Origin: Patescibacteria group bacterium
GTDB lineage: Bacteria > Patescibacteriota > Minisyncoccia > Phycocordibacterales > XYD1-FULL-46-19
Direction: 5' to 3'
DNA: 64,000 nucleotides
Assembly (NCBI GenBank): GCA_048617235.1
Contig: JBMCHT010000003.1
Location: 81,958 to 145,957 of the forward strand
The notes beneath the pieces are model-generated. The model saw nothing but the letters and a program-made list of their open reading frames with translations, did no database searches and had not been told where the DNA came from. Numbering within the stretch: the stretch's first letter is position 1; every line of letters begins with the position of its first letter. The position numbers were made by a program, and so were the translations under genes. Positions 6,042 through 40,808 of this stretch are shown piece after piece.

Positions 6042-8198
6042 TTGAGATCTAAAATCTGCATCCAAACTTTAAAAAACATTATGGAAAAAAGAGAATATTC
6101 TCTGAAAATAGGTGAGGAAACTTTAACCGCTGTTTTTTCAGACTTAACCAATAGAACCAATGGTTCGGTTACCATTAAATACGGCAACACTATTGTTTTG
6201 GTTACGGCCGTTATGTCCGATAAACAAAGTTCGGCTCCTTATTTCCCTTTAGTGGTAGATTATGAGGAAAAATTTTATGCCGCCGGCTTAATTTTAGGTG
6301 GACGCTTTATTAAAAGAGAAGGTCGGCCGAGTGAAGAAGCGATTTTAGCCGCTCGAGTGATCGACAGAACCATTAGACCTTTATTTGATCACTATATTCG
6401 TCGAGATATTCAAATAGTGGCTACTGTTTTGTCTATTGATGAAAAAAATGACCCTGATATCCCGGCGGTAATTGGAGCTTCTTTGGCTTTGGGAGTATCA
6501 GATATCCCTTGGCGAGGACCGGTGGGGGCTGTCCGTTTGGGTCTGCCAACAACAGAAGATAAAAACTTTGTTATTAATCCAGACTATAACCAATCCGGTC
6601 AAATGGCTTTGGAGTTATTGGTTTGCGGTAAAGATCATAAAGTTAATATGATAGAAGCCGAGGGTAAAGAAATAAAAGAAGAAATAATAGAACAAGCTTT
6701 AGCGGAAACGGAAGAGATTATCACTGAAATTGAAAACTGGCAAAAAGAAATTATAACCAAAGAAGGAAAAACCAAGCAAGAAATTCCGGCTCCGGTTTTA
6801 CCTCAGGATTTGGTGGATTCATTTGAAGAAAAAATAAAACCGGAATTAACCAAAGCAATTTTTTCCGGTCCCGGTGATTATAATATAAAAACCGTAAATA
6901 AAAAGTGGCAAGAAATAGTGGAAGCCGGTGATCCGGATAATGATGTCCGTTTAGCCGCTGATAATCACTTTGAAGATGCTGTTGATAAACTCTTAAGAGA
7001 AGCAGCCACTGAAAACAATCGTCGAGCCGACGGTCGCCAATTAGACGAAGTCCGGTCTCTATACGCCGAAGTGGATAATCTATCTCCGATTGTTCACGGT
7101 TCAGGTATATTCTATCGCGGAGGTACCCATATCTTATCGGTTCTAACCTTATCCGGCCCTGATGACTCTCAAATCATTGACGGAATGGAAACTCAAGGAA
7201 AAAAATATTTTATGCATCATTATAATTTTCCACCTTTTTCCGTCGGAGAAACCGGCCGTTTAGGAGGTATTAATCGTCGCTCAATCGGTCACGGAGCTTT
7301 GGCTGAAAAATCTCTACGAGGAGTTTTACCGGATAGAGAAACTTTTCCTTATACTATTAGGCTGGTATCTGAAGCTTTGGCCTCCAATGGCTCCACTTCT
7401 ATGGGTTCGCTTTGTGCTTCCAGTTTAGCCTTAATGGACGGGGGAGTACCTATTTCCGGACCGGTAGCCGGTATTGCTATGGGCTTAATGATAAATCCAA
7501 ACACTAATAAACAAGCTATTTTAACAGACATTCAAGGGCCGGAAGATTCTCACGGTGATATGGATTTTAAAATAGCCGGCACCACCGAAGGAGTTACCGG
7601 TTTACAATTGGATATTAAATTAGACGGAATCCCCAGAGCTATTTTAAGTCAAGCTTTAAACGACGGCCGCCAAGCCAGACTCAAAATTTTAGAAGTTATT
7701 ACCGCAGCTTTACCTAAACCACGACCCCAAGTTAAAGAATCTGCCCCGGGAATAACCATTTTAACTATTCCTATAAGTAAAATCGGAACAGTTATCGGCC
7801 CCGGTGGTAAAATGATACAGTCTATTATTGAAAAAACCGGAGCTGAAATAAAAATAGAAGACGATGGTAAAGTTTTCCTAACCGGTTCACAAACGGGAAT
7901 CGCCGAAGCCGAAAAAGTTATTAAAGAATTAACCAGAGAATATAAAGCCGGGGAGGAATTTACCGGCGAAGTGGTTGGAATTAAAGATTTTGGAGCCTTT
8001 GTCCGAATTGGTAAAGAAACGGAAGGACTGGTTCATATTTCCGAAATTGCTCCTTTCCGCATAGATAAAACCGAAGATGTTTTAATTATTGGTCAAAAAG
8101 TTCCGGTTAAGATTTTAGCGGTAGACAATCAAGGAAAAATTAAACTATCCATCAAAGCAGTAAATCCTGATTTCATTAAACCCCATTCTCAAAAATAA
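6042..8198 (+). CDS. pnp: polynucleotide phosphorylase (PNPase); the likely true start is the ATG at 6081 (MEKREYSL...)
   Basis: Two RNase PH-like domains plus a KH domain (ITILTIPISKIGTVIGPGGKMIQSI) and an S1 domain (GEVVGIKDFGAFVRIG) in the translation. It follows rpsO. Confidence 0.95.
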   Translation: MRSKICIQTLKNIMEKREYSLKIGEETLTAVFSDLTNRTNGSVTIKYGNTIVLVTAVMSDKQSSAPYFPLVVDYEEKFYAAGLILGGRFIKREGRPSEEAILAARVIDRTIRPLFDHYIRRDIQIVATVLSIDEKNDPDIPAVIGASLALGVSDIPWRGPVGAVRLGLPTTEDKNFVINPDYNQSGQMALELLVCGKDHKVNMIEAEGKEIKEEIIEQALAETEEIITEIENWQKEIITKEGKTKQEIPAPVLPQDLVDSFEEKIKPELTKAIFSGPGDYNIKTVNKKWQEIVEAGDPDNDVRLAADNHFEDAVDKLLREAATENNRRADGRQLDEVRSLYAEVDNLSPIVHGSGIFYRGGTHILSVLTLSGPDDSQIIDGMETQGKKYFMHHYNFPPFSVGETGRLGGINRRSIGHGALAEKSLRGVLPDRETFPYTIRLVSEALASNGSTSMGSLCASSLALMDGGVPISGPVAGIAMGLMINPNTNKQAILTDIQGPEDSHGDMDFKIAGTTEGVTGLQLDIKLDGIPRAILSQALNDGRQARLKILEVITAALPKPRPQVKESAPGITILTIPISKIGTVIGPGGKMIQSIIEKTGAEIKIEDDGKVFLTGSQTGIAEAEKVIKELTREYKAGEEFTGEVVGIKDFGAFVRIGKETEGLVHISEIAPFRIDKTEDVLIIGQKVPVKILAVDNQGKIKLSIKAVNPDFIKPHSQK

Positions 8199-8257: not shown

Positions 8258-9616
8258 ATGACAGATACAAAAAACAATTCAGCCGATGAATCAACTGAAA
8301 AGTCCGAGGAGGTGAAAAAAACAGACGACAATTCCGAAAGTAAACAAGTGCCTACAGCAAAAACAGAGACTGAAGAAAAACCCAACCCCACTGATCAAAC
8401 AGAGGGGATGGCTTCAGTTACAGAAACAACAACCCCAGCAGACGACAATAAAAAAGAACAAGCAGAAAATAAAATATCGGAAGAAGATGTAAGCACCTTA
8501 CCCGACCAAGACTTGCAAGAAAAAATCAGATTGGCTCGATTGGCTATGGAAGGACCAGAAAGAACCGCCAAAAGAGAAAGAGAAGAAAGTAAAAGAAAAA
8601 TTGAAAAAGAAAAACAAGAACTGGAAACCAAACTGATTAAAATAAATAAAGAAAAGGAATCTCTGGAAATATCTTGGGTAGTCTTAGATAATAAGAGGAG
8701 CGATTTTCAAGAACTGTTAAAGCCGGTTAAAGAAGAAGAAGAAAGCTTGGAGTTGAAAGAAGAAAAAATAGAAAATGAAGAAAGAACAGCCGTTGGTGCC
8801 AAAAACAGACAAGCAGTTGAAAAGAAGCGTTGGGCCGTTCAAGACAAAAGAAAGGAAATAGAAAAAAAGAAATGGGTGATTGAAGATAAAATATTAGAAA
8901 CCGAACAAGCTTTGGAAAAAAATACCAAAGCTTATCAAGAGTTATTAGATCAAGAAGAAAAAATTCAAGATCAATTAAATAATTTAGAAAAAGAAGAATT
9001 AATTTTAGTAGAAGAAATAAAAACAGAAGAAGAAGAAAACAAAAGAGCCGAATTGGCTCGCTTGGAATCAGAAGAAAAAAGGCGCAGAGAAACAGTAAGT
9101 CAATACCAAACCGAGAGTGAAGTTAAAAAACAAGAAGAATTAAAAACCGAAGCCGAAGCCGAAGCTCAAAAGAGAAAAGAAAAAGAGGCCAAACAAAAAG
9201 CCGAAACCGAAGCTCAAAAGAGAGAAGAGGAGGAAGCTAAGAAAAAAGCCGAAGCCGAAGCTCAAAAGAGAAAAGAAGAAGAGGCCAAACAAAAAGCCGA
9301 AACCGAAGCTCAAAAGAGAGAAGAGGAAAGAAAACAAAAAATGGAAGAAATGCGGAAGCGAGCCGAAAAAGAGATGAAAAGACAAGAAGCAGCTCGTCTG
9401 ACAACCGAGGCCAAAAGACAAAGTCAGATATCAGATAAGAGACCGGCTGCTCCGGCGCCACCGCCACAACAACCACCGCCACAACCAACCACCGCCTCTT
9501 CTACTCCAGAAGAGAAACCAGAAGATAAAAAAGAAAAAACAAATTCCGAAAAAGAATTGCCAAAAATGAGGACTATGCAATCGGATATGGATAAAGCCAA
9601 GCACTTAAATTCTTAG
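8258..9616 (+). CDS. Glu/Lys-rich coiled-coil protein with 16-aa tandem repeats and a Pro-rich C-terminus (hypothetical)
   Basis: Low-complexity charged sequence. Repeats KAE(T/A)EAQKR(K/E)EEEAK(Q/K)K x4, then PAAPAPPPQQPPPQP. No TM segment. Confidence 0.5.
   Translation: MTDTKNNSADESTEKSEEVKKTDDNSESKQVPTAKTETEEKPNPTDQTEGMASVTETTTPADDNKKEQAENKISEEDVSTLPDQDLQEKIRLARLAMEGPERTAKREREESKRKIEKEKQELETKLIKINKEKESLEISWVVLDNKRSDFQELLKPVKEEEESLELKEEKIENEERTAVGAKNRQAVEKKRWAVQDKRKEIEKKKWVIEDKILETEQALEKNTKAYQELLDQEEKIQDQLNNLEKEELILVEEIKTEEEENKRAELARLESEEKRRRETVSQYQTESEVKKQEELKTEAEAEAQKRKEKEAKQKAETEAQKREEEEAKKKAEAEAQKRKEEEAKQKAETEAQKREEERKQKMEEMRKRAEKEMKRQEAARLTTEAKRQSQISDKRPAAPAPPPQQPPPQPTTASSTPEEKPEDKKEKTNSEKELPKMRTMQSDMDKAKHLNS
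9152..9343 (+). repeat. in-frame tandem repeat, 48-nt unit in two alternating variants (96-nt higher-order unit x2)
   Basis: gccgaagccgaagctcaaaagagaaaagaa... recurs at 9152, 9200, 9248 and 9296. Confidence 0.8.
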
Positions 9617-9624
9617 TTTTTAAT

Positions 9625-11178
9625 ATGGATAAATCTGACTTAAATGACAGTCAAATTGAAGCCAGATTAGCTGCCGCTCGCACAGCTATGGGAGGTAATC
9701 GTTTGCTAAAAAAACAAGAAGCTAAAGAAAAAGACTGGGAAGAAAAAAGAAAGCTGGCGGCTTTGAGTATGGCCGGTCCGGCCTATAGAAAAAAACAAAA
9801 ACAAAAAGAGGCAGAATTACAAAAAAGAAGAGGTGAGGCTCGAGCGGCTATGATTGGAACAGACAAAATAATTAAACAAAAACAAAAAGAATCAACTTTA
9901 GAAAAATTAAAAGCATTAAGAAAAAAAGAAAAAGAAAAAAATCAACAAAAAAAAGTAAAATCAGATACCCCGACACAAGAACCGATAAATGATAAACTTG
10001 ACTCCGAAAAAAAAGAAAAGCTACAAATCAAATCGGATCCAGAAAAAGAAAAAGTTAAACAAGAAGCCCAAAAATTAATTAAAAAATTATCAAAAAATCC
10101 GGAAAGCGATCTAAAGCCTTATCGAACCCTGGAAACAGATACCTATTCTTCTGTTATTAAAAATAAATTATCAGCCGCCGATATCTCCATGACTGAAACG
10201 AAAAAAAGAGAAAGGGGAGCAGATCCTGAAACCAAACTGCCAACCAAATCCAGATTGATTCGATCTTTAGTCATAGTGTTTGTCGGTTTATTAACCCTTA
10301 GTGGAGCCGGCTTAGGGTTTTTCATTTACTGGCAATACCAGCAACCAGAAGAAAATATAAACATAAATGAAAACGGTCTCTTACCGGCAGATAAAAATAT
10401 CGCCCTAGATACTACTAACAAAAACCGGGATCAAATAATTAAAGAAATAACAACAATAACTACCAGACCAGGTTTAAATCATATTTATTTTATCTATCAA
10501 GCAGGACCGGAATCAAGACCAACCAGAGCCGGCCTTTCTGTTGTTAATAATATTATCGACTTAAATTGGCCCGATAATTTTACCAGATTCTTAACTGAAA
10601 ACTTTATGTTGGGGCAATTAACTGAAAACTCAACCGAAGGATTTTTTATTCTTTTACAGTCAAGATCAATAAATCACACTTTTGAAAATTTACTCAATTC
10701 CGGAAAAGAATTAACAGCTGAATTTTGGAATACTTTAGATATTACCTGGCCCGAAAACGAATTGGAATCCGGTCAGTTTGAAGATGTTTTAATATCCAAT
10801 ATAAATGTCAGACACTGGGTTAATACCGTCGAAACAGACAACCTTTCAAATGAAACCAATGAAACAGAGACAGATACAGATACACAAGAAACAGATACAG
10901 ATACACAAGAAACAGATACAGATACAGATACACAAGAAACAGAGACAGATACAGATACACAAGAAACAGATACAGATACAGATACACAAGAAACAGATAC
11001 AGATACAGATACACAAGAAACAGATACAGATACAGATACACAAACAGAAACTAATCCAACAAATACTACTAAAATTAACGGTCCGGCTTATGCTATTTTA
11101 GATGCTCACACCATAGCTATTACCGAAAACTTGGAAACCATGCGTTTGTTAATAGAAATTAAACAAAGTGGTAACTAA
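9625..11178 (+). CDS. single-pass membrane protein with a Lys-rich cytoplasmic N-domain, an extracytoplasmic domain and a C-terminal (E-T-D-T-D-T-Q)n repeat tail (hypothetical)
   Basis: TM segment LIRSLVIVFVGLLTLSGAGLGFFIYW at ~aa 215-240. C-terminal repeats TDTDTQETDTDTQ... Shares an A-x-x-A-M-x-G-P motif with the upstream protein. Confidence 0.5.
   Translation: MDKSDLNDSQIEARLAAARTAMGGNRLLKKQEAKEKDWEEKRKLAALSMAGPAYRKKQKQKEAELQKRRGEARAAMIGTDKIIKQKQKESTLEKLKALRKKEKEKNQQKKVKSDTPTQEPINDKLDSEKKEKLQIKSDPEKEKVKQEAQKLIKKLSKNPESDLKPYRTLETDTYSSVIKNKLSAADISMTETKKRERGADPETKLPTKSRLIRSLVIVFVGLLTLSGAGLGFFIYWQYQQPEENININENGLLPADKNIALDTTNKNRDQIIKEITTITTRPGLNHIYFIYQAGPESRPTRAGLSVVNNIIDLNWPDNFTRFLTENFMLGQLTENSTEGFFILLQSRSINHTFENLLNSGKELTAEFWNTLDITWPENELESGQFEDVLISNINVRHWVNTVETDNLSNETNETETDTDTQETDTDTQETDTDTDTQETETDTDTQETDTDTDTQETDTDTDTQETDTDTDTQTETNPTNTTKINGPAYAILDAHTIAITENLETMRLLIEIKQSGN
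10861..11045 (+). repeat. in-frame tandem repeat (unit gaaacagatacagatacacaa, 21 nt with gataca insertions) encoding (ETDTDTQ)n
   Basis: Direct reading of the sequence. About 8 units with variable numbers of TD dipeptides. Confidence 0.85.
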
Positions 11179-15174: not shown

Positions 15175-17544
15175 TTACTGACGCATTCGTTTGAAAATCT
15201 CCTCCTCCACTTCTTGAAGATCGCGACCATAAGTTAAACGAGATAATTCTTTCAATTGATTTTTAAGCTGGTCATTCCCGGCTTGCACGGTAGCGGTTTT
15301 TATATTAAAAGGTTTAGCCGGTTCACCATTGATTAACATTTTTATAAAAGCATGTCTGTTTTCAACCGACAATAAATCATTCTCGGTAAAGGTTGAACCA
15401 TAATGTTTAAGTAGAGTCTCGGTATCAGTTGGGCCAACTCTGAAAGCGGCCATAGATCCCACATTACCCATAACGGATTCTCTAATACCATCTGTTAATT
15501 GAGAAATATACTGATGAGCTAAAATTAAATTTAATTTATACTTTCTGGCTTCAGATAAAATAGTAGAAATGGAATCAGTAGTAAAATTCTGAAACTCATC
15601 TATATATAAATAAAAATCTCTTCTGGTTTTTTCATCAGCATCGGCTCGAGATAAAGCTGCTTGCAATATTTTACCGGTAATAATCATACCCAAAAGAGAA
15701 GCATTAAGATCACCAATTCGGCCTTTAGATAAATTAACCAATAAAATTTTACCTTCATCCATAACCTCCCTGAAATTGAAAGCTGATTTAGCTTGCCCAA
15801 TAATCGGTCTAACATAATCATTAGCTATAAAACTACCAAATTTAGAAGTAACATAAGGAGAAACATTGGCTAAAGACTGATCGCCGGTAGTTTGAGAAGC
15901 CTCTTTTTCCCAAAAATTAACCACCGAGGGATTGGCACATCTGGCTAATTTTCGAGCTCGATACTCTTCATCAGTAAAAACTCGAGGAATATCGGCTAAG
16001 GTGCCCGGTTCATGTTTGGCATCTTCCATTAACAACAAAAGAGCGTTACGCATAAATAGTTGGAAAACCGGACCCAAGCCTTCCGGTTGTTTTTCATATA
16101 AACGATTCAAAATAGATTGAACCTCATCTACAATAAAAGTCTTCTCCTCCGGTCGCTCCAGGTTATATTCCAGCATATTCATACCCAAAGGCCGAGAAAC
16201 ATCACCCGGATCAAAAACAATCACATCTTCCGCCCGATCTGAAGGCACTCTTTCCAAAATATCGCTAACAACATCACCATGAGGATCAATCACACATAAA
16301 CCTTTCCCATTATTAATATCCTGAACCGCCTGGTTTAAAATAAAAAAAGATTTACCGGTACCGGTTTGACCAATAATATAAAAATGACGCCGCCTGTCTT
16401 CATCAGCTAAATAAACCGGCCTTTTTTGGCCTCTAAATTGATTTTCTCCCAATAATAAACCGGAAGTCGGCAAATCATCCGGAGCCGCCACTTCTTTAGT
16501 TTTAAACCATTTAATAAAAGGAATATCGGTAGAAACGGTGGGAAAATGAAATAAACTGGCCACTTCTTCACTGTTTAATAGTATACCTTGTTCTTCTTTA
16601 AATTCTCTAAAAATATAGTGATTAATCAATTTTCGCAAACGAGAGGGTTTAACTGCTCTTAGTTTATTGCGAACCGGTGAAGATAATTGAGTAAAAGCCC
16701 CGACTGCCGACATTAAATTATCTTGAACTCGGTAATTATCGGTTGAAGCGGCCACCACTCTTATATTAGCTTGGAATAAAGTCTTAGATTGCTTATTATT
16801 TATAGCTTCCACTGCTTTATCGTCAATATCTTTAGTTTCAAGCTGATCTTCTCCTTTATTTTGAAAGGATTTTTTCGCTTCTTTAGCAAAAGTTTTCCAA
16901 CCCCCGGATATATCTTGTAAACTTTTACCTTGACGTAATTCTTTTAAAACCGATTCTATTCTCTTTTTAATTCCGGCGGGTGGGGAATTCAAGATTATTT
17001 GTATAGCCAGACCCTCTCCGGTTTCCGCCAACTTAGATAAAGCTCCCAAAATGGGGGCGAAAGTGTCCACCTCACTCTCTTTATAAGTTCTCAGAGGTAA
17101 AATATCCGGTTGTTCAAATTCTAAATAAGCGGCCTCTTGGTGGCCATGATCAGCAAAAATAGTATAATCTCCGGAAATATCCACTTGAGATTCCGGAAAT
17201 AAACTTTGAATCTGTCTAATAGTAAAATCCACCTGCAATCTGGGAACCGCCAAATAAAAATATATCTCCTGACCAAAATTATGAACAGCTGTCTCTAAAG
17301 CTATTGGTTCTTTAATATTTGATAAAGCCGATAATAATTGTTCAAAACGATTAATCTCTTCTAAAAAATTATTCTCTTGCTTGTCGCCGGTAGATTGTTG
17401 GGGCATATAAACAGACAATAAAGACAAATGCCAAGCCGGGTTTTTTTTAATTTTATTTTTTCGCCACCACATAAGACCAAAAATTATTACCAATAACAAT
17501 AAACCGACGACAACAATTGCAAATAAAAAGAGTAAATCTATCAT
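15175..17544 (-). CDS. VirD4/TraG/TraD-like type IV coupling-protein-family ATPase (membrane-anchored)
   Basis: N-terminal TM helix. P-loop YIIGQTGTGKSF. A DEF Walker B region (LYIDEFQNF). Size and architecture match T4SS coupling proteins or DNA translocases. Confidence 0.6.
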   Translation of the reverse strand: MIDLLFLFAIVVVGLLLLVIIFGLMWWRKNKIKKNPAWHLSLLSVYMPQQSTGDKQENNFLEEINRFEQLLSALSNIKEPIALETAVHNFGQEIYFYLAVPRLQVDFTIRQIQSLFPESQVDISGDYTIFADHGHQEAAYLEFEQPDILPLRTYKESEVDTFAPILGALSKLAETGEGLAIQIILNSPPAGIKKRIESVLKELRQGKSLQDISGGWKTFAKEAKKSFQNKGEDQLETKDIDDKAVEAINNKQSKTLFQANIRVVAASTDNYRVQDNLMSAVGAFTQLSSPVRNKLRAVKPSRLRKLINHYIFREFKEEQGILLNSEEVASLFHFPTVSTDIPFIKWFKTKEVAAPDDLPTSGLLLGENQFRGQKRPVYLADEDRRRHFYIIGQTGTGKSFFILNQAVQDINNGKGLCVIDPHGDVVSDILERVPSDRAEDVIVFDPGDVSRPLGMNMLEYNLERPEEKTFIVDEVQSILNRLYEKQPEGLGPVFQLFMRNALLLLMEDAKHEPGTLADIPRVFTDEEYRARKLARCANPSVVNFWEKEASQTTGDQSLANVSPYVTSKFGSFIANDYVRPIIGQAKSAFNFREVMDEGKILLVNLSKGRIGDLNASLLGMIITGKILQAALSRADADEKTRRDFYLYIDEFQNFTTDSISTILSEARKYKLNLILAHQYISQLTDGIRESVMGNVGSMAAFRVGPTDTETLLKHYGSTFTENDLLSVENRHAFIKMLINGEPAKPFNIKTATVQAGNDQLKNQLKELSRLTYGRDLQEVEEEIFKRMRQ

Positions 17545-18080
17545 ATTAATAAAAAGAGTAAAAAGAGAACCAATAAAACAGATAATGTGATTATAAGAAT
17601 AATGTAAACAAAATTACCGCCGGAGGAACGAGCCGGTTTAATATATCCTCCGGCTACCAAATCCTCATATAAACGAGAGGAGGTTAAAATATCATGAAAA
17701 GCATCCAAAATAAGGGGATCTTTCATTTTTTCTATCTCAACCACCACCCGACCCAAACCGTTTTTAGGAATAAGATCTATCATTTCGTTTAGTTGATCTA
17801 CTTTATCTTCACTGACTAGCTTGGAATTTTTCAAATATTCGGGAGTAATAATCACCTGAGCCGCCTGTTCCAGGCCGGGAAAATCATCCGCCTGCTCGGG
17901 TTTACCGGTTTGAATTCTATTTTTTTCAGTATCAATTTGATTTTTATCTTCATCAGCTTGCACTAAATTAACCGCCTGTTCCTGGTCTTGACGCACTTTA
18001 TCTATTAATTGACTTAATCGTTCTTGCTCGGCCTCTAAATCAGTTAATGTTAATTTGTGTTGTTCTAAAGATTCAGGCAT
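17541..18080 (-). CDS. hypothetical coiled-coil protein with a C-terminal TM anchor; translationally coupled to the VirD4-like gene (ATGA overlap)
   Basis: 4-nt overlap with the downstream ORF start. C-terminal hydrophobic FVYIILIITLSVLLVLFLLFLLI. Confidence 0.45.
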   Translation of the reverse strand: MPESLEQHKLTLTDLEAEQERLSQLIDKVRQDQEQAVNLVQADEDKNQIDTEKNRIQTGKPEQADDFPGLEQAAQVIITPEYLKNSKLVSEDKVDQLNEMIDLIPKNGLGRVVVEIEKMKDPLILDAFHDILTSSRLYEDLVAGGYIKPARSSGGNFVYIILIITLSVLLVLFLLFLLI

Positions 18081-24114: not shown

Positions 24115-27100
24115 ATGAAAAATAAATTTTCTCAAACAATTATCTTTTCACTGATAATACTGGTGATTTTAATTCCCTTGCTGGGTTTTGGTTTAAAAAA
24201 ATTATCTGCTTTCCAAACTCAAGCTATACCGGAGCCCGGTTTTGGTGCTGGTTACGATTACCAAACCGAGGTAGACAATCCCAGAGCAGATGACATCAGC
24301 CAACAAGCAGCCGAAGAAGCCAGAGCTCTCCAAGAAAGAACAGAAAACAATGCCTCAGCCTCTCAAGCGGCTGCCAGCAGACTAGCTGAATTGCAACAAC
24401 AAGACCTAGAACAATGTACCGCCGAAGTAACCGGACAAACTCCTCCTCAAGGACCAATGGCAGATACAGTAAATGATTCAGTAGAAGGGGCAATTAATAA
24501 TCATGTGCAAGAAAATTTTCAAGATACTTTTACAGAAGAAATGGATGATACCTTACCCCAAGAAACCCAAAACTTAGTTGAAGAATCTTTTCCTCAAGAG
24601 CTAGATAATGCCACTCAAGAAATACTTCAAGATAACCCCCAAATAGAATTATTAGATGCAGATGATCCGGCTTCAGTTATTGAAAACGGATCTTTGGATT
24701 TTAATCGAGCAGAATTAGATGAAGCCGCAGACGCATATCAAAATTATTTTGGTGACAATTGGCGTGAAGATATTCTAGATGAGGAAAATAGAGCGTCTTT
24801 TACTGAAAATCTATTCGAAGAAACCGTTCAAAGTGTCACTCCAGAAGTTTTTGAACAAGTTTTAACCGATAATTTACCTCAAGTCCTAGAAAACACCATG
24901 GAATCAGCTTTTTCCGAAACCACAGAATCTATTTTTAACCCCGATCAACTAAAAGAAGTATTTACAGATAGAAACTTTCAAAATAACTTAGAGGGAGGAC
25001 TATCTACTGTCGCCTCTGATACCGTCAATGGAGCATTAAGTGGTTTAGAAAACTTAAATGAAAGCGATTTGAGAGAAACCTTGGGTTTACCTGAAAGACC
25101 TCGCGCTGTTAGACCCGTGTCTCAATATGATGAAGATGGTTATTTTACAGGTTATACATATGAAACAGGAGGCTACGAACCCGGCACCAATCTTAATTTA
25201 GACGATATAAGAGAGGTGACAACTCAAAGCATGGAAGATAATATTTCCCAAAATATAACCGACAATTTACTTAAGGATGAAAATTTGACCAATCTATCAA
25301 CCAATATGATGGAATCAATGAATCTAAACAGTGATCAAATAGTAGGTGAAATGCTAGACGGTTTAAGTATGGATGGTTTAACTGAAAACTTAAATTTAGA
25401 CAGTTTAACTGAAAACTTAGATTTAGACAGTTTAAATTTTGATCAGGCTTTTGGTGATATATTAAACGATTTTGATATTGATAGTGTGTTAGACGGTTTT
25501 GATATTGATAATATATTAGGCGATTTTGGTGGCATAGGTGATATTGTTGGTGATTTTTCCAACCAAATAACCGACATGGCCGGAGATGTTTTTGGCGACA
25601 TAACCGGAGACATGATGGGTGATCTTAATGATCTTGGTATTGGCTTAGATTTAGACAGCCTCCCCGGACCTTTAAATGATATAGCCGGTGATATAACCGG
25701 GGGTTTAGATGGGTCTTTACCCGGTGCCGGAGGTTTTGGTGGCGGTGGTAATTATGTACCGGTTAAAGAAGTTGACGGTCCTTTACTGTCCACTACTCAA
25801 GAAATAGATGCCACCACCAAAAGAATGGAACAATTATTAATTCAAATTTGTACTTACCAAAAATCCATCCAAAGAATCCAAACCGCCTTTGAACAAAAAG
25901 AATTTATGGAAGATGTTCAACTTCGTCAATCGGCCAGTGATGAGGTGGAGCGTTATCGTCAGGAAGTTTTTGATCTAACTAATCGCGGTTATGACCCTGA
26001 TGGTCAAGGAGCCGAACAACCGCTATATGTCACCAACTTGGATTCTCACCTCCAGCAAGTTAAAAACGAAACCCGCTCTGTTTATTTAAATCATTTTGGC
26101 CACACTGAAAATGCTTTTGCCGAACAAGTAACAAATGCCATAATGAACAACCCTGATGTCCCGGCTTTACCGGAATCCACCATTACCGTAGATGAATATG
26201 AACGCTTCTTTACCGGTCAAATCGCCGATGCTGAAGAATATCGCCGTATTGCTAGAGAAGTTTATAATCCCTACTTACCCAACACCCCGCAAAGAGCGGT
26301 AGATATGCATTCGGCTTTATATCGTCAAAACTTACAAGAAAAACAAGATCAAGCTGAATTGGAATTTAATACCGGTCAAGGTTATTTGCCTGTCAGAGAA
26401 TGTATTGAACACACCGATGATGGTAGTGCTTGTCTCCACTGGGAAACCATAACTCCGGCCTCTCAAATAGGCGAGCAAATAGCCGATGTTTTGAGTTATC
26501 GCCAAGAAGTTTACACTAATCCTCAAGCCGGAGATATTGTTCCCGGCTCTTCTCCGTCTGAAGCAGAACTTAGAAACTTCAGACCTTCGGCTTCCGGAGG
26601 TAGTAGCAGTGGTAGTAGTGGTGGTAGCAATTCAGCTTCTATGCCGGGATCTTCTATGCCGGGATCTTTTGATATTAATCAAGTGGTTGATATGTTATCT
26701 CAATTTATGTCCGGATTGGAAGGATCAGACCCTGATAGTAGCCCCTCAACCGCCTCCTTAGCTATGGCTAAAGAAATAATAGATGATCAAAATCAAGCGG
26801 TCATCTCTTGGTCCGGAGAAGATGTCAACAGTTGTCAAACAGATAATAATTGGATATCCGGTAATCAATTTACAATGACCGGTTCCGGTGGTATGCAAAG
26901 TTTCTTTGATCATTTTATTATAACCAAAGATGAAGGAGAGGGATTGCCTAATGCCGGTCAGAGTACTATTGACCTGCCTGTATCTTTGGATGTTCGGTTT
27001 GAAGTTATAAGAGCTTCCGGCTCTAATGCCGGAGAAAGGAGAACAATTACCGGGGGAGTAACAACCGATATAATAGATGATATTTATCAAGAAGTAACTT

Positions 27101-27396
27101 TGAATATACCGAGTGTAAATGCCGGGGATGAATTCATTATTTCTTTATTCCCGCATGTTACTAATTATCAAATAAACATAACAGCTTCTAACGGTAATGC
27201 TTCAGATTTGATAAATGAAATAAGAACTGAAATAGATGATATTATAAATAATGAAACTGGAATTTTAAAGAAGAATTTAAGCTTGTTGAATATTGAATAT
27301 AAAACAAATTCAGTAACTCTTTCTCCTAAATTAAAATATGATATAAAATGTCTAGATAATAGCGGTTCAACTATTCAAGATGGTCTAACTTTATAA
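24115..27396 (+). CDS. giant acidic secreted/anchored protein (1093 aa) with Asp/Gly-rich degenerate repeats
   Basis: N-terminal TM/signal. Extremely acidic central region with repeats LDxLTENL and GD(I/V)xGD-type motifs. Cys-poor C-terminal domain. Confidence 0.55.
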   Translation: MKNKFSQTIIFSLIILVILIPLLGFGLKKLSAFQTQAIPEPGFGAGYDYQTEVDNPRADDISQQAAEEARALQERTENNASASQAAASRLAELQQQDLEQCTAEVTGQTPPQGPMADTVNDSVEGAINNHVQENFQDTFTEEMDDTLPQETQNLVEESFPQELDNATQEILQDNPQIELLDADDPASVIENGSLDFNRAELDEAADAYQNYFGDNWREDILDEENRASFTENLFEETVQSVTPEVFEQVLTDNLPQVLENTMESAFSETTESIFNPDQLKEVFTDRNFQNNLEGGLSTVASDTVNGALSGLENLNESDLRETLGLPERPRAVRPVSQYDEDGYFTGYTYETGGYEPGTNLNLDDIREVTTQSMEDNISQNITDNLLKDENLTNLSTNMMESMNLNSDQIVGEMLDGLSMDGLTENLNLDSLTENLDLDSLNFDQAFGDILNDFDIDSVLDGFDIDNILGDFGGIGDIVGDFSNQITDMAGDVFGDITGDMMGDLNDLGIGLDLDSLPGPLNDIAGDITGGLDGSLPGAGGFGGGGNYVPVKEVDGPLLSTTQEIDATTKRMEQLLIQICTYQKSIQRIQTAFEQKEFMEDVQLRQSASDEVERYRQEVFDLTNRGYDPDGQGAEQPLYVTNLDSHLQQVKNETRSVYLNHFGHTENAFAEQVTNAIMNNPDVPALPESTITVDEYERFFTGQIADAEEYRRIAREVYNPYLPNTPQRAVDMHSALYRQNLQEKQDQAELEFNTGQGYLPVRECIEHTDDGSACLHWETITPASQIGEQIADVLSYRQEVYTNPQAGDIVPGSSPSEAELRNFRPSASGGSSSGSSGGSNSASMPGSSMPGSFDINQVVDMLSQFMSGLEGSDPDSSPSTASLAMAKEIIDDQNQAVISWSGEDVNSCQTDNNWISGNQFTMTGSGGMQSFFDHFIITKDEGEGLPNAGQSTIDLPVSLDVRFEVIRASGSNAGERRTITGGVTTDIIDDIYQEVTLNIPSVNAGDEFIISLFPHVTNYQINITASNGNASDLINEIRTEIDDIINNETGILKKNLSLLNIEYKTNSVTLSPKLKYDIKCLDNSGSTIQDGLTL

Positions 27397-27404
27397 AAAC
27401 ACTC

Positions 27405-30400
27405 ATGCTTATAACTCATAAAAAAAAGTTTATTATTACATCTTTATTGATTGTTTTTTTTGTTGTTTTATTGATTAATCCTAAAGAAACAATAGCCACT
27501 GAAGAAGAATTTTCAGATAGATATGAAAATTGTGTTAATTCCCTCGTCGATACGAGCAGGCCTCCTGATGATGATTTAGAGTCACAAATAAACTGGCTGA
27601 AAGAGCGATCTGCTTTCTATTTGGAAAAAAGTTTTGAAATTGAACCACAATTAGAAGAAATGAGAGAAAATTCTGATAATACTTTCCTAAGGCCTACTTT
27701 TGTTTGTGCTTTTGATACTGATGGCTTATGTGATTACGAGCCCAGAGATTTTTTAAACGCATCAGTTGAAACCATAGAAGGAACATTATCAAATTCTTAT
27801 ATAATATCTTTTCCTAATGGAGACTCTATAGAAACTTCCGGTAGATACTGGAATTACAACGAGTGGTTCCAAAAATCTTCAGATTATCAAAGTCTTAGAG
27901 CAGAAAGAAGTCGTTTTAATGCTCTTTCGTCCGAAATACTTCAATGTGTAAGCTTGGGAGAAACTGCTTTAAATTATGAAAATTTAAATCCAGAAGAAAT
28001 AGATGAAACAGAAGAAGAATTAATTGAACTGGAAAATTATGCTGAACAAGAAAGGAGAGAATCTTCAAACACAAGCAGGGCTCAAATAGAAAGACTGGAT
28101 GCATCTAGATTAGATATTGATAAAAGTTGGTTTTGTTTAGGGCACGGTAATATCATCGGTTTTGATTTTGGAGATCCTGTTTGTTATATAGAGCTTTTCA
28201 CTATGCTATTTGAAGTTATAAGAGATATGGTGGTTAGCATTTTAACAGAAATAATATCTCCTTTTTACGATACGGTTATCCATCATTCAGTGATAGAAAT
28301 AACCCAATTTTTAGACACTGATTCTGCAAATCAAGTCTGGATAGCTGTTAGAGATGTCGCTAATTTATTTTTTATATTTATTCTTTTATATGTTTCTTTT
28401 AGTATAACCTTACAAATAGGAGGGGCTAATGACAAACGGCTTATAGCTATGGTTATTATCATAGCTTTATTAATTAATTTTAGTGCCGCCCTTACCAAAG
28501 TAGCTATAGACGCCTCTAATATAACAGCTTTACATTTTTTGGAACAAATAGATGAAGATGGGGAGGTAGGAACAAGACTGCAGATAACCAGTAAATTTAG
28601 TACATTAAGCGCAAGTCAACTACCAGGTGGAGATAATCAAATAGAAAGAGAAGCTGCTTGGAAAAGATTAATGGCTACTGTTGCTAATATAGTCTTCGCT
28701 TTTATTTTAATAATTGCTCTTTTAGTGGGCTCTTTCTTATATTTATGGAGAGTTGTCATATTTTTAATATTAATTGTAGCTTCTCCTTTGGCGTTTGTAG
28801 GCTTTGCTTTACCTAAAATAAAGACCATGATTACAGACAAATGGCTGTCTCAACTGTTTTGTTGGTGTGCTTTCGCTCCAATATCTATGTTCTTTTTGTG
28901 GGCTAGTTTTACTTTAGCAGAAGGCACTAATCTGGAAGGGGGTTTTTTTGAATTAATGATTCATTTCTTTATTATTTGCGCCCTGGTTATCGGCTCGTTT
29001 GTTATGTCTCAAATATTATCCTGTTCCGGATCAAGCTCCATAGCCGGACGAGGAGTTGGAGCATTAAATTATACCAAAGACAAAGCTGCAACCGGCTTAA
29101 AACATGGAGCAGGAAAAACTGCCAAGTGGGCTGCTACCAGTGATACCAAAAAATATGGAGGTAAACTGGCTAATCGCATAGGTGGATTAAAAGACACAGG
29201 CTATGATATGCAGAAATCAGACAGTAGAACCAAGCGTGTATTAGGGCGAGCCTCAGAGTGGGTAGGTGATAAAGGTCAAAAAATAGCAGATAAAACAGGC
29301 CAAACTAAAGTACAAGAAAGCAAAGTAAAAAGAGCAACAGAAGTAATAAATAAAGGAGAAAATGCTGATGAAAAAGCTCGGACCTTTAATAGGTTGAACA
29401 AAATTACAGGAGCCGTCGGAATGAATAGATTAACTCAAGCCGATTGGGTGGCCAATCAATCTGGACAACAATTAGCTGAACTTGCCAATTCTATTAAAGA
29501 CCTAAAAACAAAAGAAGATTTTAGAGGAAACTTGGATAAATTACTGGCTCGAGATCCGGAAAAGAAAAAAGAATTTTTGGAAGCTTTACCTAAAGAGCAA
29601 GAAAAATCGGCTACTAAAGTTAAACCGGGAGAATTAAATAAAGAAACCGAAATTGAAAGAAATAGAGAAGCCGGTCAACAACGAGCTGCGAATGTTCTAG
29701 CTTTATCAAATGATAAAAAAGGAGAAGAGCCCAGCGAGAGACAAAAAGTTTTAGCAGAAATAGACACTGAAACCTTAGCCAATATGTTAAATAGTACCGA
29801 CAATGAAGCAGATTACCAACAACTTATAGATGATTTAAATCAGACATTAGATCCTCAAAAAATGGAGAGAGTTTTCGAAGAGATGGCTAAAGATTTAAGT
29901 AAAACTTTAAATGCTATTTCTTTTATTTCTGATCCGAATAAAAAAGAAGAATTAATGACAACAGAACTGGGAAGAGTTGGTAAAATGGATATCAATTACC
30001 AACAACAAGCCTATAACAAAACAGATGAATTAACCAGAGATGGCATCAGAGAAGCTGTCATCAGTGGAATGGCCGTAGCTGGAGTCAATATAAAAGATTT
30101 AGACCAAAAACTTCCAAAAGACAAACAAGAAAAAGAAAAAACCATAGAAAGATTAGAAGCTGAGGATAACCTTAAAAATTCAGATGCAAATACTTCCGAA
30201 GAAGATATTAAGAAATATTTAGATACCTTAACCACAGACATGAAAGTAAACTTACCGGATGAAGTTCTTAAAAAAGAAAGAGTGGTAGCCAATTTAGATA
30301 TAGCCACTATTAATAAATTAACTCAAGCTTCAAAAACACCTGATTTATTGAGAGAAATTGGTAAGGTGGTAGAAGAATTAAAAAGAAAAAAGGATCCTAA

Positions 30401-30698
30401 AGGTGATGCTTTATGGGGATCTATGAAGAGTATGACAACACAATCAATGTTTTTCAGTCACAACGATACAGGAAACACCGGTGGAGAATCCAGCCAAACA
30501 TCTAACCCACCCTCCCAAACATCTAACCAATCTACCTTAAAAGAAGATCCAAATTCATTTGAAGCAACTAAAAGAGAAAAACAAGAAAAAAGCGGAGTAT
30601 CAGAAGAAGATGAAGAAGAAGCAAATCAAAGGTTGAAAAAACTCCGAAGAGAAATGAGAAATAATAATAATAATAATAATAATAATAATCAACAATAA
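27405..30698 (+). CDS. VirB6/TrbL-like polytopic membrane protein with a large N-terminal extracytoplasmic domain and a long charged C-terminal tail ending in poly-Asn
   Basis: Signal/TM at the N-terminus. Block of ~6-7 hydrophobic helices at aa ~300-540. ~550-aa K/E-rich hydrophilic tail. Architecture resembles PrgH/TcpH/VirB6-type proteins. Placed 2 genes upstream of the PrgI-like and VirB4-like genes. Confidence 0.45.
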   Translation: MLITHKKKFIITSLLIVFFVVLLINPKETIATEEEFSDRYENCVNSLVDTSRPPDDDLESQINWLKERSAFYLEKSFEIEPQLEEMRENSDNTFLRPTFVCAFDTDGLCDYEPRDFLNASVETIEGTLSNSYIISFPNGDSIETSGRYWNYNEWFQKSSDYQSLRAERSRFNALSSEILQCVSLGETALNYENLNPEEIDETEEELIELENYAEQERRESSNTSRAQIERLDASRLDIDKSWFCLGHGNIIGFDFGDPVCYIELFTMLFEVIRDMVVSILTEIISPFYDTVIHHSVIEITQFLDTDSANQVWIAVRDVANLFFIFILLYVSFSITLQIGGANDKRLIAMVIIIALLINFSAALTKVAIDASNITALHFLEQIDEDGEVGTRLQITSKFSTLSASQLPGGDNQIEREAAWKRLMATVANIVFAFILIIALLVGSFLYLWRVVIFLILIVASPLAFVGFALPKIKTMITDKWLSQLFCWCAFAPISMFFLWASFTLAEGTNLEGGFFELMIHFFIICALVIGSFVMSQILSCSGSSSIAGRGVGALNYTKDKAATGLKHGAGKTAKWAATSDTKKYGGKLANRIGGLKDTGYDMQKSDSRTKRVLGRASEWVGDKGQKIADKTGQTKVQESKVKRATEVINKGENADEKARTFNRLNKITGAVGMNRLTQADWVANQSGQQLAELANSIKDLKTKEDFRGNLDKLLARDPEKKKEFLEALPKEQEKSATKVKPGELNKETEIERNREAGQQRAANVLALSNDKKGEEPSERQKVLAEIDTETLANMLNSTDNEADYQQLIDDLNQTLDPQKMERVFEEMAKDLSKTLNAISFISDPNKKEELMTTELGRVGKMDINYQQQAYNKTDELTRDGIREAVISGMAVAGVNIKDLDQKLPKDKQEKEKTIERLEAEDNLKNSDANTSEEDIKKYLDTLTTDMKVNLPDEVLKKERVVANLDIATINKLTQASKTPDLLREIGKVVEELKRKKDPKGDALWGSMKSMTTQSMFFSHNDTGNTGGESSQTSNPPSQTSNQSTLKEDPNSFEATKREKQEKSGVSEEDEEEANQRLKKLRREMRNNNNNNNNNNQQ
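30661..30690 (+). repeat. (AAT)10 microsatellite encoding the C-terminal poly-Asn of the VirB6-like protein
   Basis: aataataataataataataataataataat read directly. Confidence 0.9.
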
Positions 30699-30700
30699 AC

Positions 30701-31195
30701 ATGCCTTTAACCCCCGAAATAATTCAAGAAAAAACCAAAGACTTACCGGAAAAAGTCAAAGAGGCTTTCTTTTCTTCAGAAACCAGTAAAACTATTCGTG
30801 AAGTAGGTCAAAAAAACAATCTTCATATAGATCAAATAGGAATATTGGCAGATTTAACCGGACAAGTTTTATTAGGAATATTGCCGGTAAGTAGTTTTAC
30901 TCGACATCTTTCCAATTACTTGCATATAGATACCGAAACGGCTAAATTTATGGCCATTGAAATAAATGAAAAGATATTTTTACCTATCAGAGAAGATTTA
31001 AAGAAAGTTAATATTTCTAAAAAAGAAGACACTGAGCCGGAAAAGAAAAAAGCGGATTCGCCACCGCCTCCACCAACTACGGAAAAAACCGAAGAAAAAG
31101 AAACTATTAAAAAAGATTTGTATCAAGACAGAAAATCCGAATTAAGTGGTAGTATAGATAATGTAGATGATCCTTATCGAGAACCAATAGAATAA
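30701..31195 (+). CDS. hypothetical hydrophilic protein with a Pro-rich segment, in the T4SS-like operon
   Basis: Tight spacing (2 nt after the upstream stop). No TM segment. PPPPTTEKTEEKE. Confidence 0.4.
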   Translation: MPLTPEIIQEKTKDLPEKVKEAFFSSETSKTIREVGQKNNLHIDQIGILADLTGQVLLGILPVSSFTRHLSNYLHIDTETAKFMAIEINEKIFLPIREDLKKVNISKKEDTEPEKKKADSPPPPPTTEKTEEKETIKKDLYQDRKSELSGSIDNVDDPYREPIE

Positions 31196-31199
31196 AAAT

Positions 31200-31628
31200 A
31201 TGCGCTTTCAAGTTCCACAATTTATAGATATTGAAGATAAAATTTTCGGACCTTTATCTTTTAAGCAATTTATTTACATAGCCGGGGGAGCCGGGGGAGC
31301 TTATTTATCTTTTCAAATACTACCCCCTATTATTAATATATTGTTTGTAGTTGTATTCGGTGGTTTGGGTCTGGCTTTGGCTTTTTATAAAGTAAACGAG
31401 CGTCCTTTAATCTTAATAATTCAATCAGCTATCAAACATTTTTTAAACAGTAAATTGTATTTATGGGAAAAGAAAAAACCCTCTGTTCCTCAAAAACAAG
31501 AAAAAGAGGAAGGGTCTGAAGTAAAACAAGAAATTTTACCTAAAATGTCCAAAAGTAAATTAGAAGATTTATCTTGGAGTTTAGATGTTAAACAAAAACC
31601 TGAAGAACCGGAGAATGAAGCCCTGTAA
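31200..31628 (+). CDS. PrgI-family (VirB3-like) small membrane protein
   Basis: N-terminus RFQVPQFIDIEDKIFGPLSFKQFIYI follows the PrgI pattern (KVP-x-DL-x-EDRI-x-x-LS-x-RQ), followed by two TM helices. It lies immediately upstream of the VirB4 homolog. Confidence 0.5.
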   Translation: MRFQVPQFIDIEDKIFGPLSFKQFIYIAGGAGGAYLSFQILPPIINILFVVVFGGLGLALAFYKVNERPLILIIQSAIKHFLNSKLYLWEKKKPSVPQKQEKEEGSEVKQEILPKMSKSKLEDLSWSLDVKQKPEEPENEAL

Positions 31629-31664
31629 ATTTTCCTCAACTACTATAATTAAAGAAAGGCTCGG

Positions 31665-32339
31665 TTGTGTTATAATAAGATTATGTTGAATATTAATTCC
31701 AAACCAACTCAAGATTTTTTATCCATAAAAGCTATTAGAAATGACTTGGTTATTATGAAAGATAATAGTTATCGTGCTGTTTTACTAACCACCGCCACTA
31801 ACTTTGCTTTAAAATCTGATGATGAACAAATTGCTATTATCTCTCAGTATCAGAACTTTCTCAATTCTTTGGATTTTTCCATACAAATTTTTATTCAATC
31901 TCGAAGATTAGATATTAATCCCTATTTAATGACCATTAAAAAATTACAAAAAAACCAGACTAATGAATTACTAAAAATACAAACCAAAGAATATATAGAT
32001 TTTATTAAAACTTTCGTAGAAAACTCCAATATTATGTCTAAAAGTTTTTTTGTGGTTATTCCATATTATAGTACAGTTGCTTCCGATAGCGGATCTTTTT
32101 TAAGTAACACTCTCCCTTTTTTAAAACAAAAAGATGAAGGCAAGAAAAAAATGGAAACCGAAGAATATCAAGCGCAAGTAGAACAAAGAATAGGAGTAGT
32201 GGAGCAAGGTTTATCTAGAACCGGTATTAAATCAAGCCGTTTAGGTACAGAGGAATTAATAGAATTATATTTCAAAATATTTAATCCCGGAGAACAAGGA
32301 TTACCTTCTATGGATAATTTGCAACAAGCTAAAAAGTAA
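31665..32339 (+). CDS. VirB4/TrbE-family ATPase, N-terminal segment (split from the ATPase body by a frame change)
   Basis: IKAIRNDLVIMKDNSYRAVLLTTATNFALKSDDEQIAIISQYQNFLNSLDFSIQIFIQSRRLD matches the start of Gram-positive-type VirB4/PrgJ/TrsE. Ends TAA 32337-32339, immediately after an A5 run. Confidence 0.5.
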   Translation: MCYNKIMLNINSKPTQDFLSIKAIRNDLVIMKDNSYRAVLLTTATNFALKSDDEQIAIISQYQNFLNSLDFSIQIFIQSRRLDINPYLMTIKKLQKNQTNELLKIQTKEYIDFIKTFVENSNIMSKSFFVVIPYYSTVASDSGSFLSNTLPFLKQKDEGKKKMETEEYQAQVEQRIGVVEQGLSRTGIKSSRLGTEELIELYFKIFNPGEQGLPSMDNLQQAKK

Positions 32340-32344
32340 GCAAT

Positions 32345-34153: not shown

Positions 34154-34174
34154 AAAATATTTTAAAATAATAAT

Positions 34175-35164: not shown

Positions 35165-35167
35165 GTT

Positions 35168-36019: not shown

Positions 36020-36030
36020 ATTATTATTTT

Positions 36031-36531: not shown

Positions 36532-36534
36532 AAT

Positions 36535-40564: not shown

Positions 40565-40808
40565 TGAATAAGTATATGGATAAGTTGTTTAAAATTATCA
40601 ATAAAATGTGTAAAACAATAAAGTTATTAACATTATAAAATAAAAAATTTTAAAAGTTTAAGTTTTAAAGGTTTTATAAAATTACAACAACAATTAATTA
40701 ACAAATTAAAATCTTATTTCAACTTCTAAAATAAAGTTATTTTTAAGTTATCAAGTTATCAACAAGACTAAATATAATAAATAAGTATATATATAATATA
40801 TTAATAAA
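40565..40808. promoter_or_regulatory. dnaA-dnaN intergenic region: candidate oriC with degenerate DnaA boxes (TGGATAAG at 40577; TTATCAATA at ~40595; GTTATCAAGTTATCAACAAG at 40747-40766) and a very AT-rich putative unwinding element (40770-40808)
   Basis: Motifs read directly. 244-bp non-coding, >80% AT. Confidence 0.5.

Follow-up and report, generated by a model that had tools for sequence, protein, structure and literature searches.

An ATPase gene overlapping a small partner gene

The window analysed here, a 64,000-nt stretch of a Patescibacteria chromosome with a GC content of ~35% and rich in housekeeping genes, carries on its reverse strand two overlapping genes. The upstream one encodes an acidic 179-aa protein, called the partner below, and the downstream one a 789-aa ATPase resembling the coupling proteins (T4CPs) of type IV secretion systems (T4SSs; Table 1). 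Read directly in the DNA, the partner stop and the ATPase start share an ATGA, as a first-pass annotation of this DNA had described. That annotation had also credited the 789-aa protein with an N-terminal transmembrane (TM) helix, the P-loop GQTGTGKS and a DEF Walker B motif, and all three are present in the open reading frame (ORF). The hydrophobic helix (residues ~3-25) is followed by the basic stretch WWRKNKIKKN, which by the positive-inside rule places the remainder of the ATPase in the cytoplasm. Walker A occupies residues 392-399, and Walker B (D649-E650-F651) lies inside YLYIDEFQNF; neither G392-Q-T-G-x-G-K398 nor D649-E650-F651 varies in a 20-sequence alignment of the family. While helix and motor had thus been recognised correctly, a 310-residue domain between them, DUF8128, had been overlooked.

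The two ORFs are not products of chance, since searches with the ATPase reach over 2,500 homologues (E ≤ 1e-5) and sequences identical to the window proteins occur in one NCBI metagenome-assembled genome (MAG) and one Logan assembly. Among the 120 homologues listed, all named ones belong to Patescibacteria lineages, and NCBI names the identical ATPase 'type IV secretory system conjugative DNA transfer family protein'. No paralogue was found when the 789-aa protein was compared with all window ORFs by phmmer. Promoter and terminator signals between 14700 and 18400 were not enriched relative to shuffled sequences, and an Rfam scan of the window returned tRNAs only.

Table 1. Features of the gene pair, of the T4SS cluster in the same window, and of related loci (locus identifiers precede coordinates outside the window).
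Feature	Position	Strand	Basis or remark
T4CP-type ATPase, 789 aa	15175-17544	-	ORF call, Pfam and NCBIfam matches; NCBI name
ATPase N-terminal TM helix (residues ~1-30), predicted N-out/C-in	17455-17544	-	Hydropathy scan
DUF8128 domain (residues 36-345), VirB4-like fold of the N-terminal domain	16510-17439	-	AlphaFold2 domain model, Foldseek, Pfam annotation
T4CP-like motor domain (residues 363-789)	15178-16458	-	Pfam above cut-offs; TrwB by sequence and structure
Walker A	16348-16371	-	Motif
Helical insertion resembling the all-alpha domain (residues ~465-573)	15826-16152	-	Predicted secondary structure
Walker B DEF	15592-15600	-	Motif
Partner, 179 aa, acidic, class-1 family	17541-18080	-	ORF call, jackhmmer family
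Partner motif LDAFHD..L	17691-17705	-	Family alignment
Partner C-terminal hydrophobic tail (residues 152-179), lineage-specific	17544-17627	-	DNA read directly
Divergent hypothetical protein, 246 aa	18140-18880	+	Neighbour only, outside the module
MPF-FATA-like T4SS cluster, adjoining yidC-rnpA-dnaA-dnaN	24115-37842	+	Pfam matches; candidate machine served by the ATPase
PrgI/VirB3	from 31200		Pfam
VirB4, 602 aa	32345-34153		P-loop_TraG and AAA_10 matches
T4SS_pilin protein with weak CHAP match (under Pfam cut-off)	from 35168
Fused ATPase ORFs (~910-968 aa)	L049, L052, L055, L061, L064, L068, L073, L075, L077, L080
Bacillus phage SPO1 gp27.4	L089:4179-6899		Corresponds to phrog_5156

Assignment of the motor to the VirD4 type

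On the ATPase, four T4CP-related Pfam families exceed their gathering cut-offs, among them T4SS-DNA_transf (35.1 bits, cut-off 20.1), TrwB_AAD_bind (27.6 bits, cut-off 20.5, spanning residues 383-686) and TraG-D_C (23.6 bits, cut-off 22). FtsK_SpoIIIE stays under its cut-off (13.6 vs. 24 bits), and DUF87, the HerA central domain, scores above cut-off (31 bits) over ~80 residues around the P-loop (residues 375-455). TraD and VirD4-like families are the best NCBIfam matches; models of VirB4, HerA and Ced score far lower, e.g. 23.3 bits vs. a cut-off of 643 for TIGR00929 (VirB4) and 15.6 bits vs. 970 for the HerA equivalog models. The VirB4 families AAA_10, P-loop_TraG and CagE_TrbE_VirB found no match on the ATPase in the Pfam scan, and neither Pfam nor NCBIfam scans detected a HerA N-terminal region. 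Among PDB sequences, TrwB and DotL match best, and no VirB4 is listed. Because the T4CP families lie above cut-off and FtsK_SpoIIIE below, and because TrwB and DotL are the closest PDB sequences, the 789-aa protein is assigned to the VirD4/T4CP-type ATPases and not to HerA or FtsK. The first-pass annotation had favoured VirD4/TraG over HerA/FtsK in the same way, and it is to VirD4/TraG that the best profile matches went.

The AlphaFold2 model of the full ATPase (predicted local distance difference test, pLDDT, 77) was compared with the PDB by Foldseek. Full-length TrwK/VirB4 ranked best (~860 alignment columns, E 1.9e-16), ahead of HerA and TrwB; TrwB aligned over the motor only (target-normalised TM-score, TMt, ~0.5), and Cagbeta-CagZ was among the structural matches of the motor. 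Six predicted helices at residues 465-573 lie between core strands of the model. The ATPase shares with VirD4/TrwB proteins (TrwB of R388, PDB 1E9R; DotL; Cagbeta) a Walker A of the form GxxGxGKS, a Walker B DE and an N-terminal membrane anchor; its predicted helical insertion may correspond to the all-alpha domain of TrwB. Unlike them, it has a single TM helix instead of the canonical two-helix TM domain, carries the 310-residue VirB4-like domain between anchor and motor, and is encoded by a vertically inherited chromosomal gene whose family mostly lies far from virB4; no relaxase was found among the window ORFs scanned around it.

A DUF8128 domain with a predicted VirB4-like fold

Around 340 residues separate the TM helix of the ATPase from its P-loop. 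In the Pfam annotation precomputed for the identical protein, this region is PF26449/DUF8128, a domain that all 120 homologues among the matches listed carry as well. When residues 36-345 were modelled separately (AlphaFold2, pLDDT 82.6, pTM 0.85), the first 14 PDB matches found by Foldseek were all TrwK/VirB4 (E 4e-8 to 4e-6; query-normalised TM-score, TMq, ~0.5), and the 15th fell to E 4e-3. A match through the RecA-like motor would have brought up TrwB, HerA and FtsK as well; as these are absent, we infer that DUF8128 corresponds, at the level of predicted fold, to the N-terminal domain (NTD) of VirB4. At the sequence level, the DUF8128 profile found no match among PDB sequences, nor to the VirB4 of the window or of Streptomyces, and hhalign comparisons with the window VirB4 and with the 224-aa ORF upstream of virB4 were negative. 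The TM helix, the fold match of DUF8128 and the T4CP profiles together point to an architecture of TM helix, VirB4-NTD-like domain and VirD4-like motor.

This layout recalls VirB4/TrwK (R388, PDB 7O42/8RTD), which likewise consists of two domains, a RecA-like motor and, ahead of it, an NTD that shares the predicted fold. The window ATPase differs in its T4CP-like motor and the lack of sequence-profile similarity, and a separate VirB4 is encoded in the same window. It differs also from HerA, in that the fold predicted for its NTD is VirB4-like and not a HAS-barrel. A search with the DUF8128 profile retrieved 2,461 clusters at 50% identity, in which the domain starts either at residue ~35-65 or at residue ~145. 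No literature was found under the name DUF8128.

Two partner families, an in-frame fusion and a lineage-specific tail

A word-index search for homologues of the 179-aa protein returned only the partner itself, and loci were therefore analysed by position. This positional analysis covered 80 species-representative loci, with partner totals counted over 79 related loci, and was combined with jackhmmer and a profile search to obtain the partner family. At nearly all loci, a same-strand ORF of 125-200 aa ends a few bases from the ATPase start. Seeded with the window partner, jackhmmer gathered 39 upstream ORFs; when all ORFs of the loci were searched, 42 adjacent upstream ORFs were recovered, together with in-frame fusions.

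Members of this class-1 family have a coiled-coil-like helix at the N-terminus, joined by a low-complexity linker to a helical C-terminal domain that bears the motif LDAFHD..L...LY..L..RG; the window partner (pI 4.5) has an amphipathic, coiled-coil-like N-terminal segment. A second family (class 2) is basic, carries the motif WL..IPGVN.FFLEQEAKIKAD and occupies the same position at 18 loci with more divergent ATPases. Between the two classes no relation is detectable (hhalign probability 1.4%). Over the 79 loci, the partner belongs to class 1 at 44, to class 2 at 18 and is fused at 10, with none or an undetermined one at the remaining seven. The gap between class-1 genes and the ATPase ranges from -7 to +255 nt, with many from -4 to +12 nt, and class-2 spacing is similar. 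The conserved two-gene module proposed in the first-pass annotation is thereby borne out, as an adjacent or fused partner recurs across these loci. The profile search yielded 172 class-1 proteins, all labelled 'hypothetical' and none with a Pfam domain; the partner itself matched no Pfam, NCBIfam or PHROG family. A PADLOC match of the partner to LmuB (15 bits, E 0.0024) was judged to be noise.

At the ten fused loci, the class-1 domain and the ATPase share one reading frame, with the class-1 domain at the N-terminal end, giving proteins of 910-968 aa from which the TM helix has disappeared; the helix is kept in the ATPases of the other 69 of 79 relatives. A neighbour-joining tree built on the motor domain unites the fused forms in one monophyletic group, which hence goes back to one retained fusion event. 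The clade takes in genomes labelled Taylorbacteria and Campbellbacteria. From the fusion it follows that the partner domain would be cytoplasmic and sit at the membrane-proximal N-terminal end of the ATPase, and fusion together with loss of the TM helix predicts a T4CP that is soluble or peripherally recruited.

The partner of the window ends in a hydrophobic tail of 25-28 residues (residues 152-179), which by its sequence would tail-anchor the protein in the membrane. This tail is restricted to the window's partner, being missing in 22 other aligned members and in the other 119 screened. A 'small membrane partner', as the first-pass annotation had it, is therefore an apt description for this one genome (1 of 120) and a peculiarity of it, whereas the family is cytoplasmic. 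Across the loci, the partner is kept by the motor in three ways: by translational coupling, by fusion and, in the window only, by separate tail-anchoring. An N-terminal TM segment apparent in the partner at L039 is probably a start-codon artefact of the ORF caller; the same locus has two tandem DUF8128 ATPase paralogues (820 and 737 aa) with a 259-aa ORF between them (L039:10001-15465).

In concept, a small dedicated protein beside a T4CP is known from CagZ-Cagbeta (PDB 8DOL), TraI/TraJ of pIP501, DotM/DotN-DotL, and TraM with the TraD C-terminus. Unlike these accessory proteins, the window partner matches no Pfam, NCBIfam or PHROG family, and two unrelated partner families share its position. 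In pIP501, a membrane protein recruits the T4CP, and the putatively membrane-tethered partner of the window resembles such recruitment.

Relatives in conjugation modules of monoderm bacteria

A tblastn search with the ATPase retrieved 336 plasmid records, 33 of them covering ≥80% of the protein, and 77 phage records, e.g. SPO1 gp27.4. On a Streptomyces sp. BHT-5-2 plasmid (p1), an 814-aa homologue (28% identity, E 1e-65, residues 27-750) stands third in the order PrgI-domain protein, VirB4, homologue, Replic_Relax relaxase (142 bits) and NlpC/P60 hydrolase. A 24.7-kb B. subtilis plasmid (NZ_CP032854) encodes an 886-aa homologue named 'DUF87 domain-containing protein' (residues 93-749, E 2e-33), followed by Replic_Relax, a conjugal transfer protein, TcpE and an ATPase. 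In C. botulinum plasmids, the gene for a TrbC/VirB2-like protein overlaps the homologue start by 4 nt; as seen in pRSJ20_1 (L090:7585-10388), this upstream gene encodes a pilin-like membrane protein and thus a different kind of partner. The DUF8128 profile matches the N-termini of the Bacillus protein (54 bits), SPO1 gp27.4 (31 bits) and the Streptomyces protein (28 bits), and leaves VirB4s unmatched.

The conjugation-module contexts and the N-terminal DUF8128 matches place the window ATPase in a T4CP lineage of monoderm conjugation systems. With the Streptomyces and B. subtilis homologues it shares homology across NTD and motor, and these likewise belong to FATA-like sets with PrgI, TcpE and VirB4. 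Unlike the window gene, they sit on mobile elements, immediately beside a Replic_Relax relaxase and VirB4, and have neither a class-1 nor a class-2 partner visible upstream; the Bacillus homologue is moreover without a TM helix and ends in a long acidic tail. In Patescibacteria, this monoderm-type T4CP lineage has turned into a vertically inherited chromosomal gene, core in these ultra-small bacteria. Such an origin fits the derivation of the Patescibacteria T4SS from MPF-FATA machinery published in a survey of the phylum (PMC12102498).

Homologues are also encoded by large Bacillus phages (SPO1, SP-10, JL, CampHawk and others), some of them alignable over the greater part of the protein, DUF8128 region included. 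The family phrog_5156, annotated as of unknown function, matches ATPase residues 80-787 (E 1e-75). Shorter, ATPase-only relatives (411-582 aa, 31-37% identity over residues ~365-787) occur in viral or proviral contigs (IMG/VR, L082-L087; GC 34-60%), one of them adjoining a PLD-family nuclease (L082:4950-6248 and 6363-7004), and the PADLOC model for mad8 of the MADS defence system matches the motor domain with 54 bits. As the window is devoid of a defence context, we take the ATPase-only relatives and the mad8 match as side branches.

Genomic neighbourhood and the T4SS cluster

The T4SS cluster of the window appears complete and lies directly upstream of yidC-rnpA-dnaA-dnaN (38-42 kb), an arrangement near dnaA that has already been described for Patescibacteria in the survey (PMC12102498). 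It contains two proteins of ~1,095 aa without a Pfam match and unrelated to each other, and a 224-aa ORF, possibly TrsD-like, that abuts virB4. Between 36000 and 46000 the GC content drops to 22-29% around dnaA/dnaN (39164-41906), consistent with a replication origin; the T4SS cluster ends there. The distance of 6 kb between the ATPase and the 'VirB4 block' given in the first-pass annotation applies to the first gene of the cluster (24115), virB4 itself being 14.3 kb away. That the coupling protein lies apart from VirB4 holds true, yet is not new, as the survey had already reported as much for Patescibacteria (PMC12102498).

Of the other genes around the pair, the divergent 246-aa neighbour is basic, as had been noted (pI 9.8; 59-bp spacer to the partner gene), and without a Pfam, NCBIfam or PADLOC family. 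It is not conserved, with a homologue in 0 of 80 related loci, and was rejected as a part of the module. The synteny of the window, comprising a giant T4SS protein, UvrD, partner, ATPase, M23 peptidase and ComM, is common to L002 only, and co-occurrence of the ATPase with a T4SS locus, which the first-pass annotation had named as a check, is accordingly lineage-specific. Elsewhere, recurrent neighbours include a GtrA-like protein and a glycosyltransferase that its sequence marks as ArnT/PMT-like. At class-2 loci (L042-L081), a conserved ~213-aa protein is encoded directly downstream of the ATPase in 15 cases (e.g. L057:12559-13200, L053:13199-14719); considered as a degenerate Replic_Relax relaxase, this protein was rejected for want of a Pfam match. 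A dnaX gene is found 1-4 genes downstream of the ATPase at 24 loci, including several with a class-1 partner, and together with the ~213-aa gene this suggests a larger conserved block.

Among the window ORFs of ≥100 aa that were scanned, which span 937-56207, none showed a relaxase domain, and Pfam and PADLOC scans revealed no defence gene (methyltransferase, nuclease or other) near the ATPase. Two further regions of the window were recorded. Adjacent ORFs of 452 and 517 aa at 8258-11178 are extremely E/K-rich, of low complexity and without a Pfam match, one of them featuring a (TDTDTQE)n repeat in addition to a TM helix, in a region with a very high AT skew (0.495). On the reverse strand, a PilB/GspE-type T2SSE ATPase (47401-49146; 387 bits) is encoded amid genes of DNA repair and replication (ruvC, yebC, ruvB, tsaE and polA), with no other pilus genes adjacent among the ORFs scanned.

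A proposed coupling protein for the T4SS or, possibly, an exapted translocase

The ATPase itself is already annotated, is represented in Pfam (DUF8128 and T4CP domains) and has been surveyed as a T4CP homologue across the phylum. That survey counts 2,918 Patescibacteria genomes with T4CP homologues out of 3,035, places 148 of 5,713 hits near virB4 and finds relaxases in 103 genomes (Quinonero-Coronel et al. 2025, PMC12102498). The hits of its t4cp1 profile are probably the same proteins as the DUF8128 ATPases. In its available text, neither DUF8128 as a VirB4-like domain nor upstream partner families or fusions appear, and we found no description in the literature searched of the VirB4-like fold of DUF8128, the two partner families, the fusion, or the full-length homology to relaxase-adjacent T4CPs of Bacillus and Streptomyces.

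With the identity and architecture of the ATPase, its intact catalytic motifs, and the conservation and fusion of the pair established, the explanation we prefer, and regard as about evenly balanced between right and wrong, is that a monoderm-derived T4CP with an adaptor partner serves the VirB4 T4SS. The ATPase would form a membrane-tethered, TrwB/VirD4-like hexamer with a single anchor, a cytoplasmic DUF8128 module and a motor bearing an all-alpha insertion. In Patescibacteria, the conjugation-derived T4CP would have become a chromosomal gene without a relaxase and gained a small cytoplasmic partner, which may bind near the membrane-proximal N-terminus of the ATPase or to its NTD as an adaptor or docking factor. 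The NTD could in turn dock to the VirB3/VirB4 inner-membrane complex, and the hexamer may recruit cargo, be it protein or relaxase-free nucleic acid, and feed it by ATP hydrolysis into the origin-proximal T4SS of the window. In favour of this explanation, a complete FATA-like T4SS lies within the same window, and the survey shows VirB4 as well as T4CP homologues to be near-universal across the phylum (PMC12102498).

Several observations weigh against it. In 78 of the 80 loci, no counterpart of VirB4, PrgI, the pilin or another T4SS gene is encoded within 10 kb of the ATPase, whose usual neighbours are the housekeeping genes dnaX, cysS, dnaK and ftsI. The survey reports T4CP homologues in 2,918 genomes vs. 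VirB4 in 2,417, and a Southlakia epibionticum protein, classed there as a T4CP homologue and only putatively of the DUF8128 type, that is non-essential, in contrast to the T4SS genes, which are essential (PMC12102498).

The same observations would be expected if the T4CP descendant had been exapted as a T4SS-independent, membrane-associated housekeeping translocase or remodeller, e.g. in DNA or RNA handling or envelope biogenesis, a scenario that we consider possible, if on the doubtful side. The recurrence of dnaX 1-4 genes downstream in 24 loci speaks for it, as do the fused clade, which is devoid of any TM anchor, and the ATPase-only relatives outside any T4SS context; the survey authors themselves raise exaptation of T4CP homologues (PMC12102498). 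On the other hand, bona fide systems often encode their T4CP at a distance from virB4, as the survey also notes (PMC12102498), and MAG incompleteness could account for the difference between 2,918 and 2,417 genomes. Moreover, the nearest annotated full-length relatives belong to conjugation modules, and no conserved functional neighbour points to another pathway.

The ATPase might instead be a second, divergent VirB4-type assembly ATPase, a paralogue that builds or energises the inner-membrane complex or pilus of the T4SS and does not select substrates. In its division into two domains and in its best structural matches at full length it agrees with VirB4/TrwK, the NTD model matches VirB4 only, and an N-terminal TM helix followed by such an NTD recalls VirB3-VirB4 fusions, whose layout is similar. 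We nevertheless hold this to be unlikely: no VirB4-specific family is matched (TIGR00929 remains far below its cut-off), sequence profiles choose TrwB and DotL and never VirB4, and the DUF8128 profile misses the VirB4 of both the window and Streptomyces. In the Streptomyces and B. subtilis plasmids, furthermore, a separate VirB4 is encoded in addition to the homologue, which adjoins the relaxase, the classical position of a T4CP.

A HerA/FtsK-type helicase or an anti-phage defence ATPase (e.g. MADS mad8-like) unrelated to secretion, to which the DUF87 match confined to the P-loop region, the HerA structures among the Foldseek matches, the mad8 match on the motor and the PLD nuclease beside one viral-contig relative might point, is highly improbable and already largely refuted by the profile results, with FtsK_SpoIIIE and the HerA equivalog below cut-off and no HerA N-terminal region in the Pfam and NCBIfam scans; unlike in MADS, where mad8 belongs to an operon of eight mad genes, no other defence match was found among the neighbours (PADLOC, Pfam), and the family is near-universal, vertically inherited and single-copy in a core housekeeping context, unlike defence islands.

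Implications for cargo selection in Patescibacteria

The T4SS of Patescibacteria has been reported to be essential for epibiotic growth (PMC10633639, PMC12857230), and Wang et al. 2023 (PMC10633639) could recognise neither a coupling protein nor a relaxase in the T4SS cluster of Southlakia. The lack of relaxases and of coupling proteins encoded in the cluster has left obscure both the cargo of this machine and the way it is chosen. The present analysis identifies a near-universal T4CP homologue of the phylum as a predicted hybrid of a VirB4-like NTD and a VirD4-like motor, with a dedicated and hitherto unannotated partner, and thereby offers ATPase and partner as concrete candidates for cargo selection.

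Taking the preferred explanation, a T4CP serving the VirB4 T4SS, one step further, the DUF8128 ATPase and its partner might constitute the relaxase-independent cargo-selection module of the essential Patescibacteria T4SS, in which lineage-variable partners, in some cases fused or tethered to the membrane, would act as adaptors choosing epibiont-host cargo and the VirB4-like NTD would dock the motor on VirB3/VirB4, unlike in canonical VirD4. This proposal is speculative, and we think it rather improbable as a whole. If true, protein effectors or host-derived nucleic acid would be the cargo moved between epibiont and host, and the ATPase would represent a T4CP lineage retaining a VirB4 NTD, with a bearing on the divergence of VirD4 and VirB4. 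If the pair instead acts independently of the T4SS, it would be a clear example of a conjugation ATPase taken into service for a core function of the cell, in a phylum with minimal genomes.

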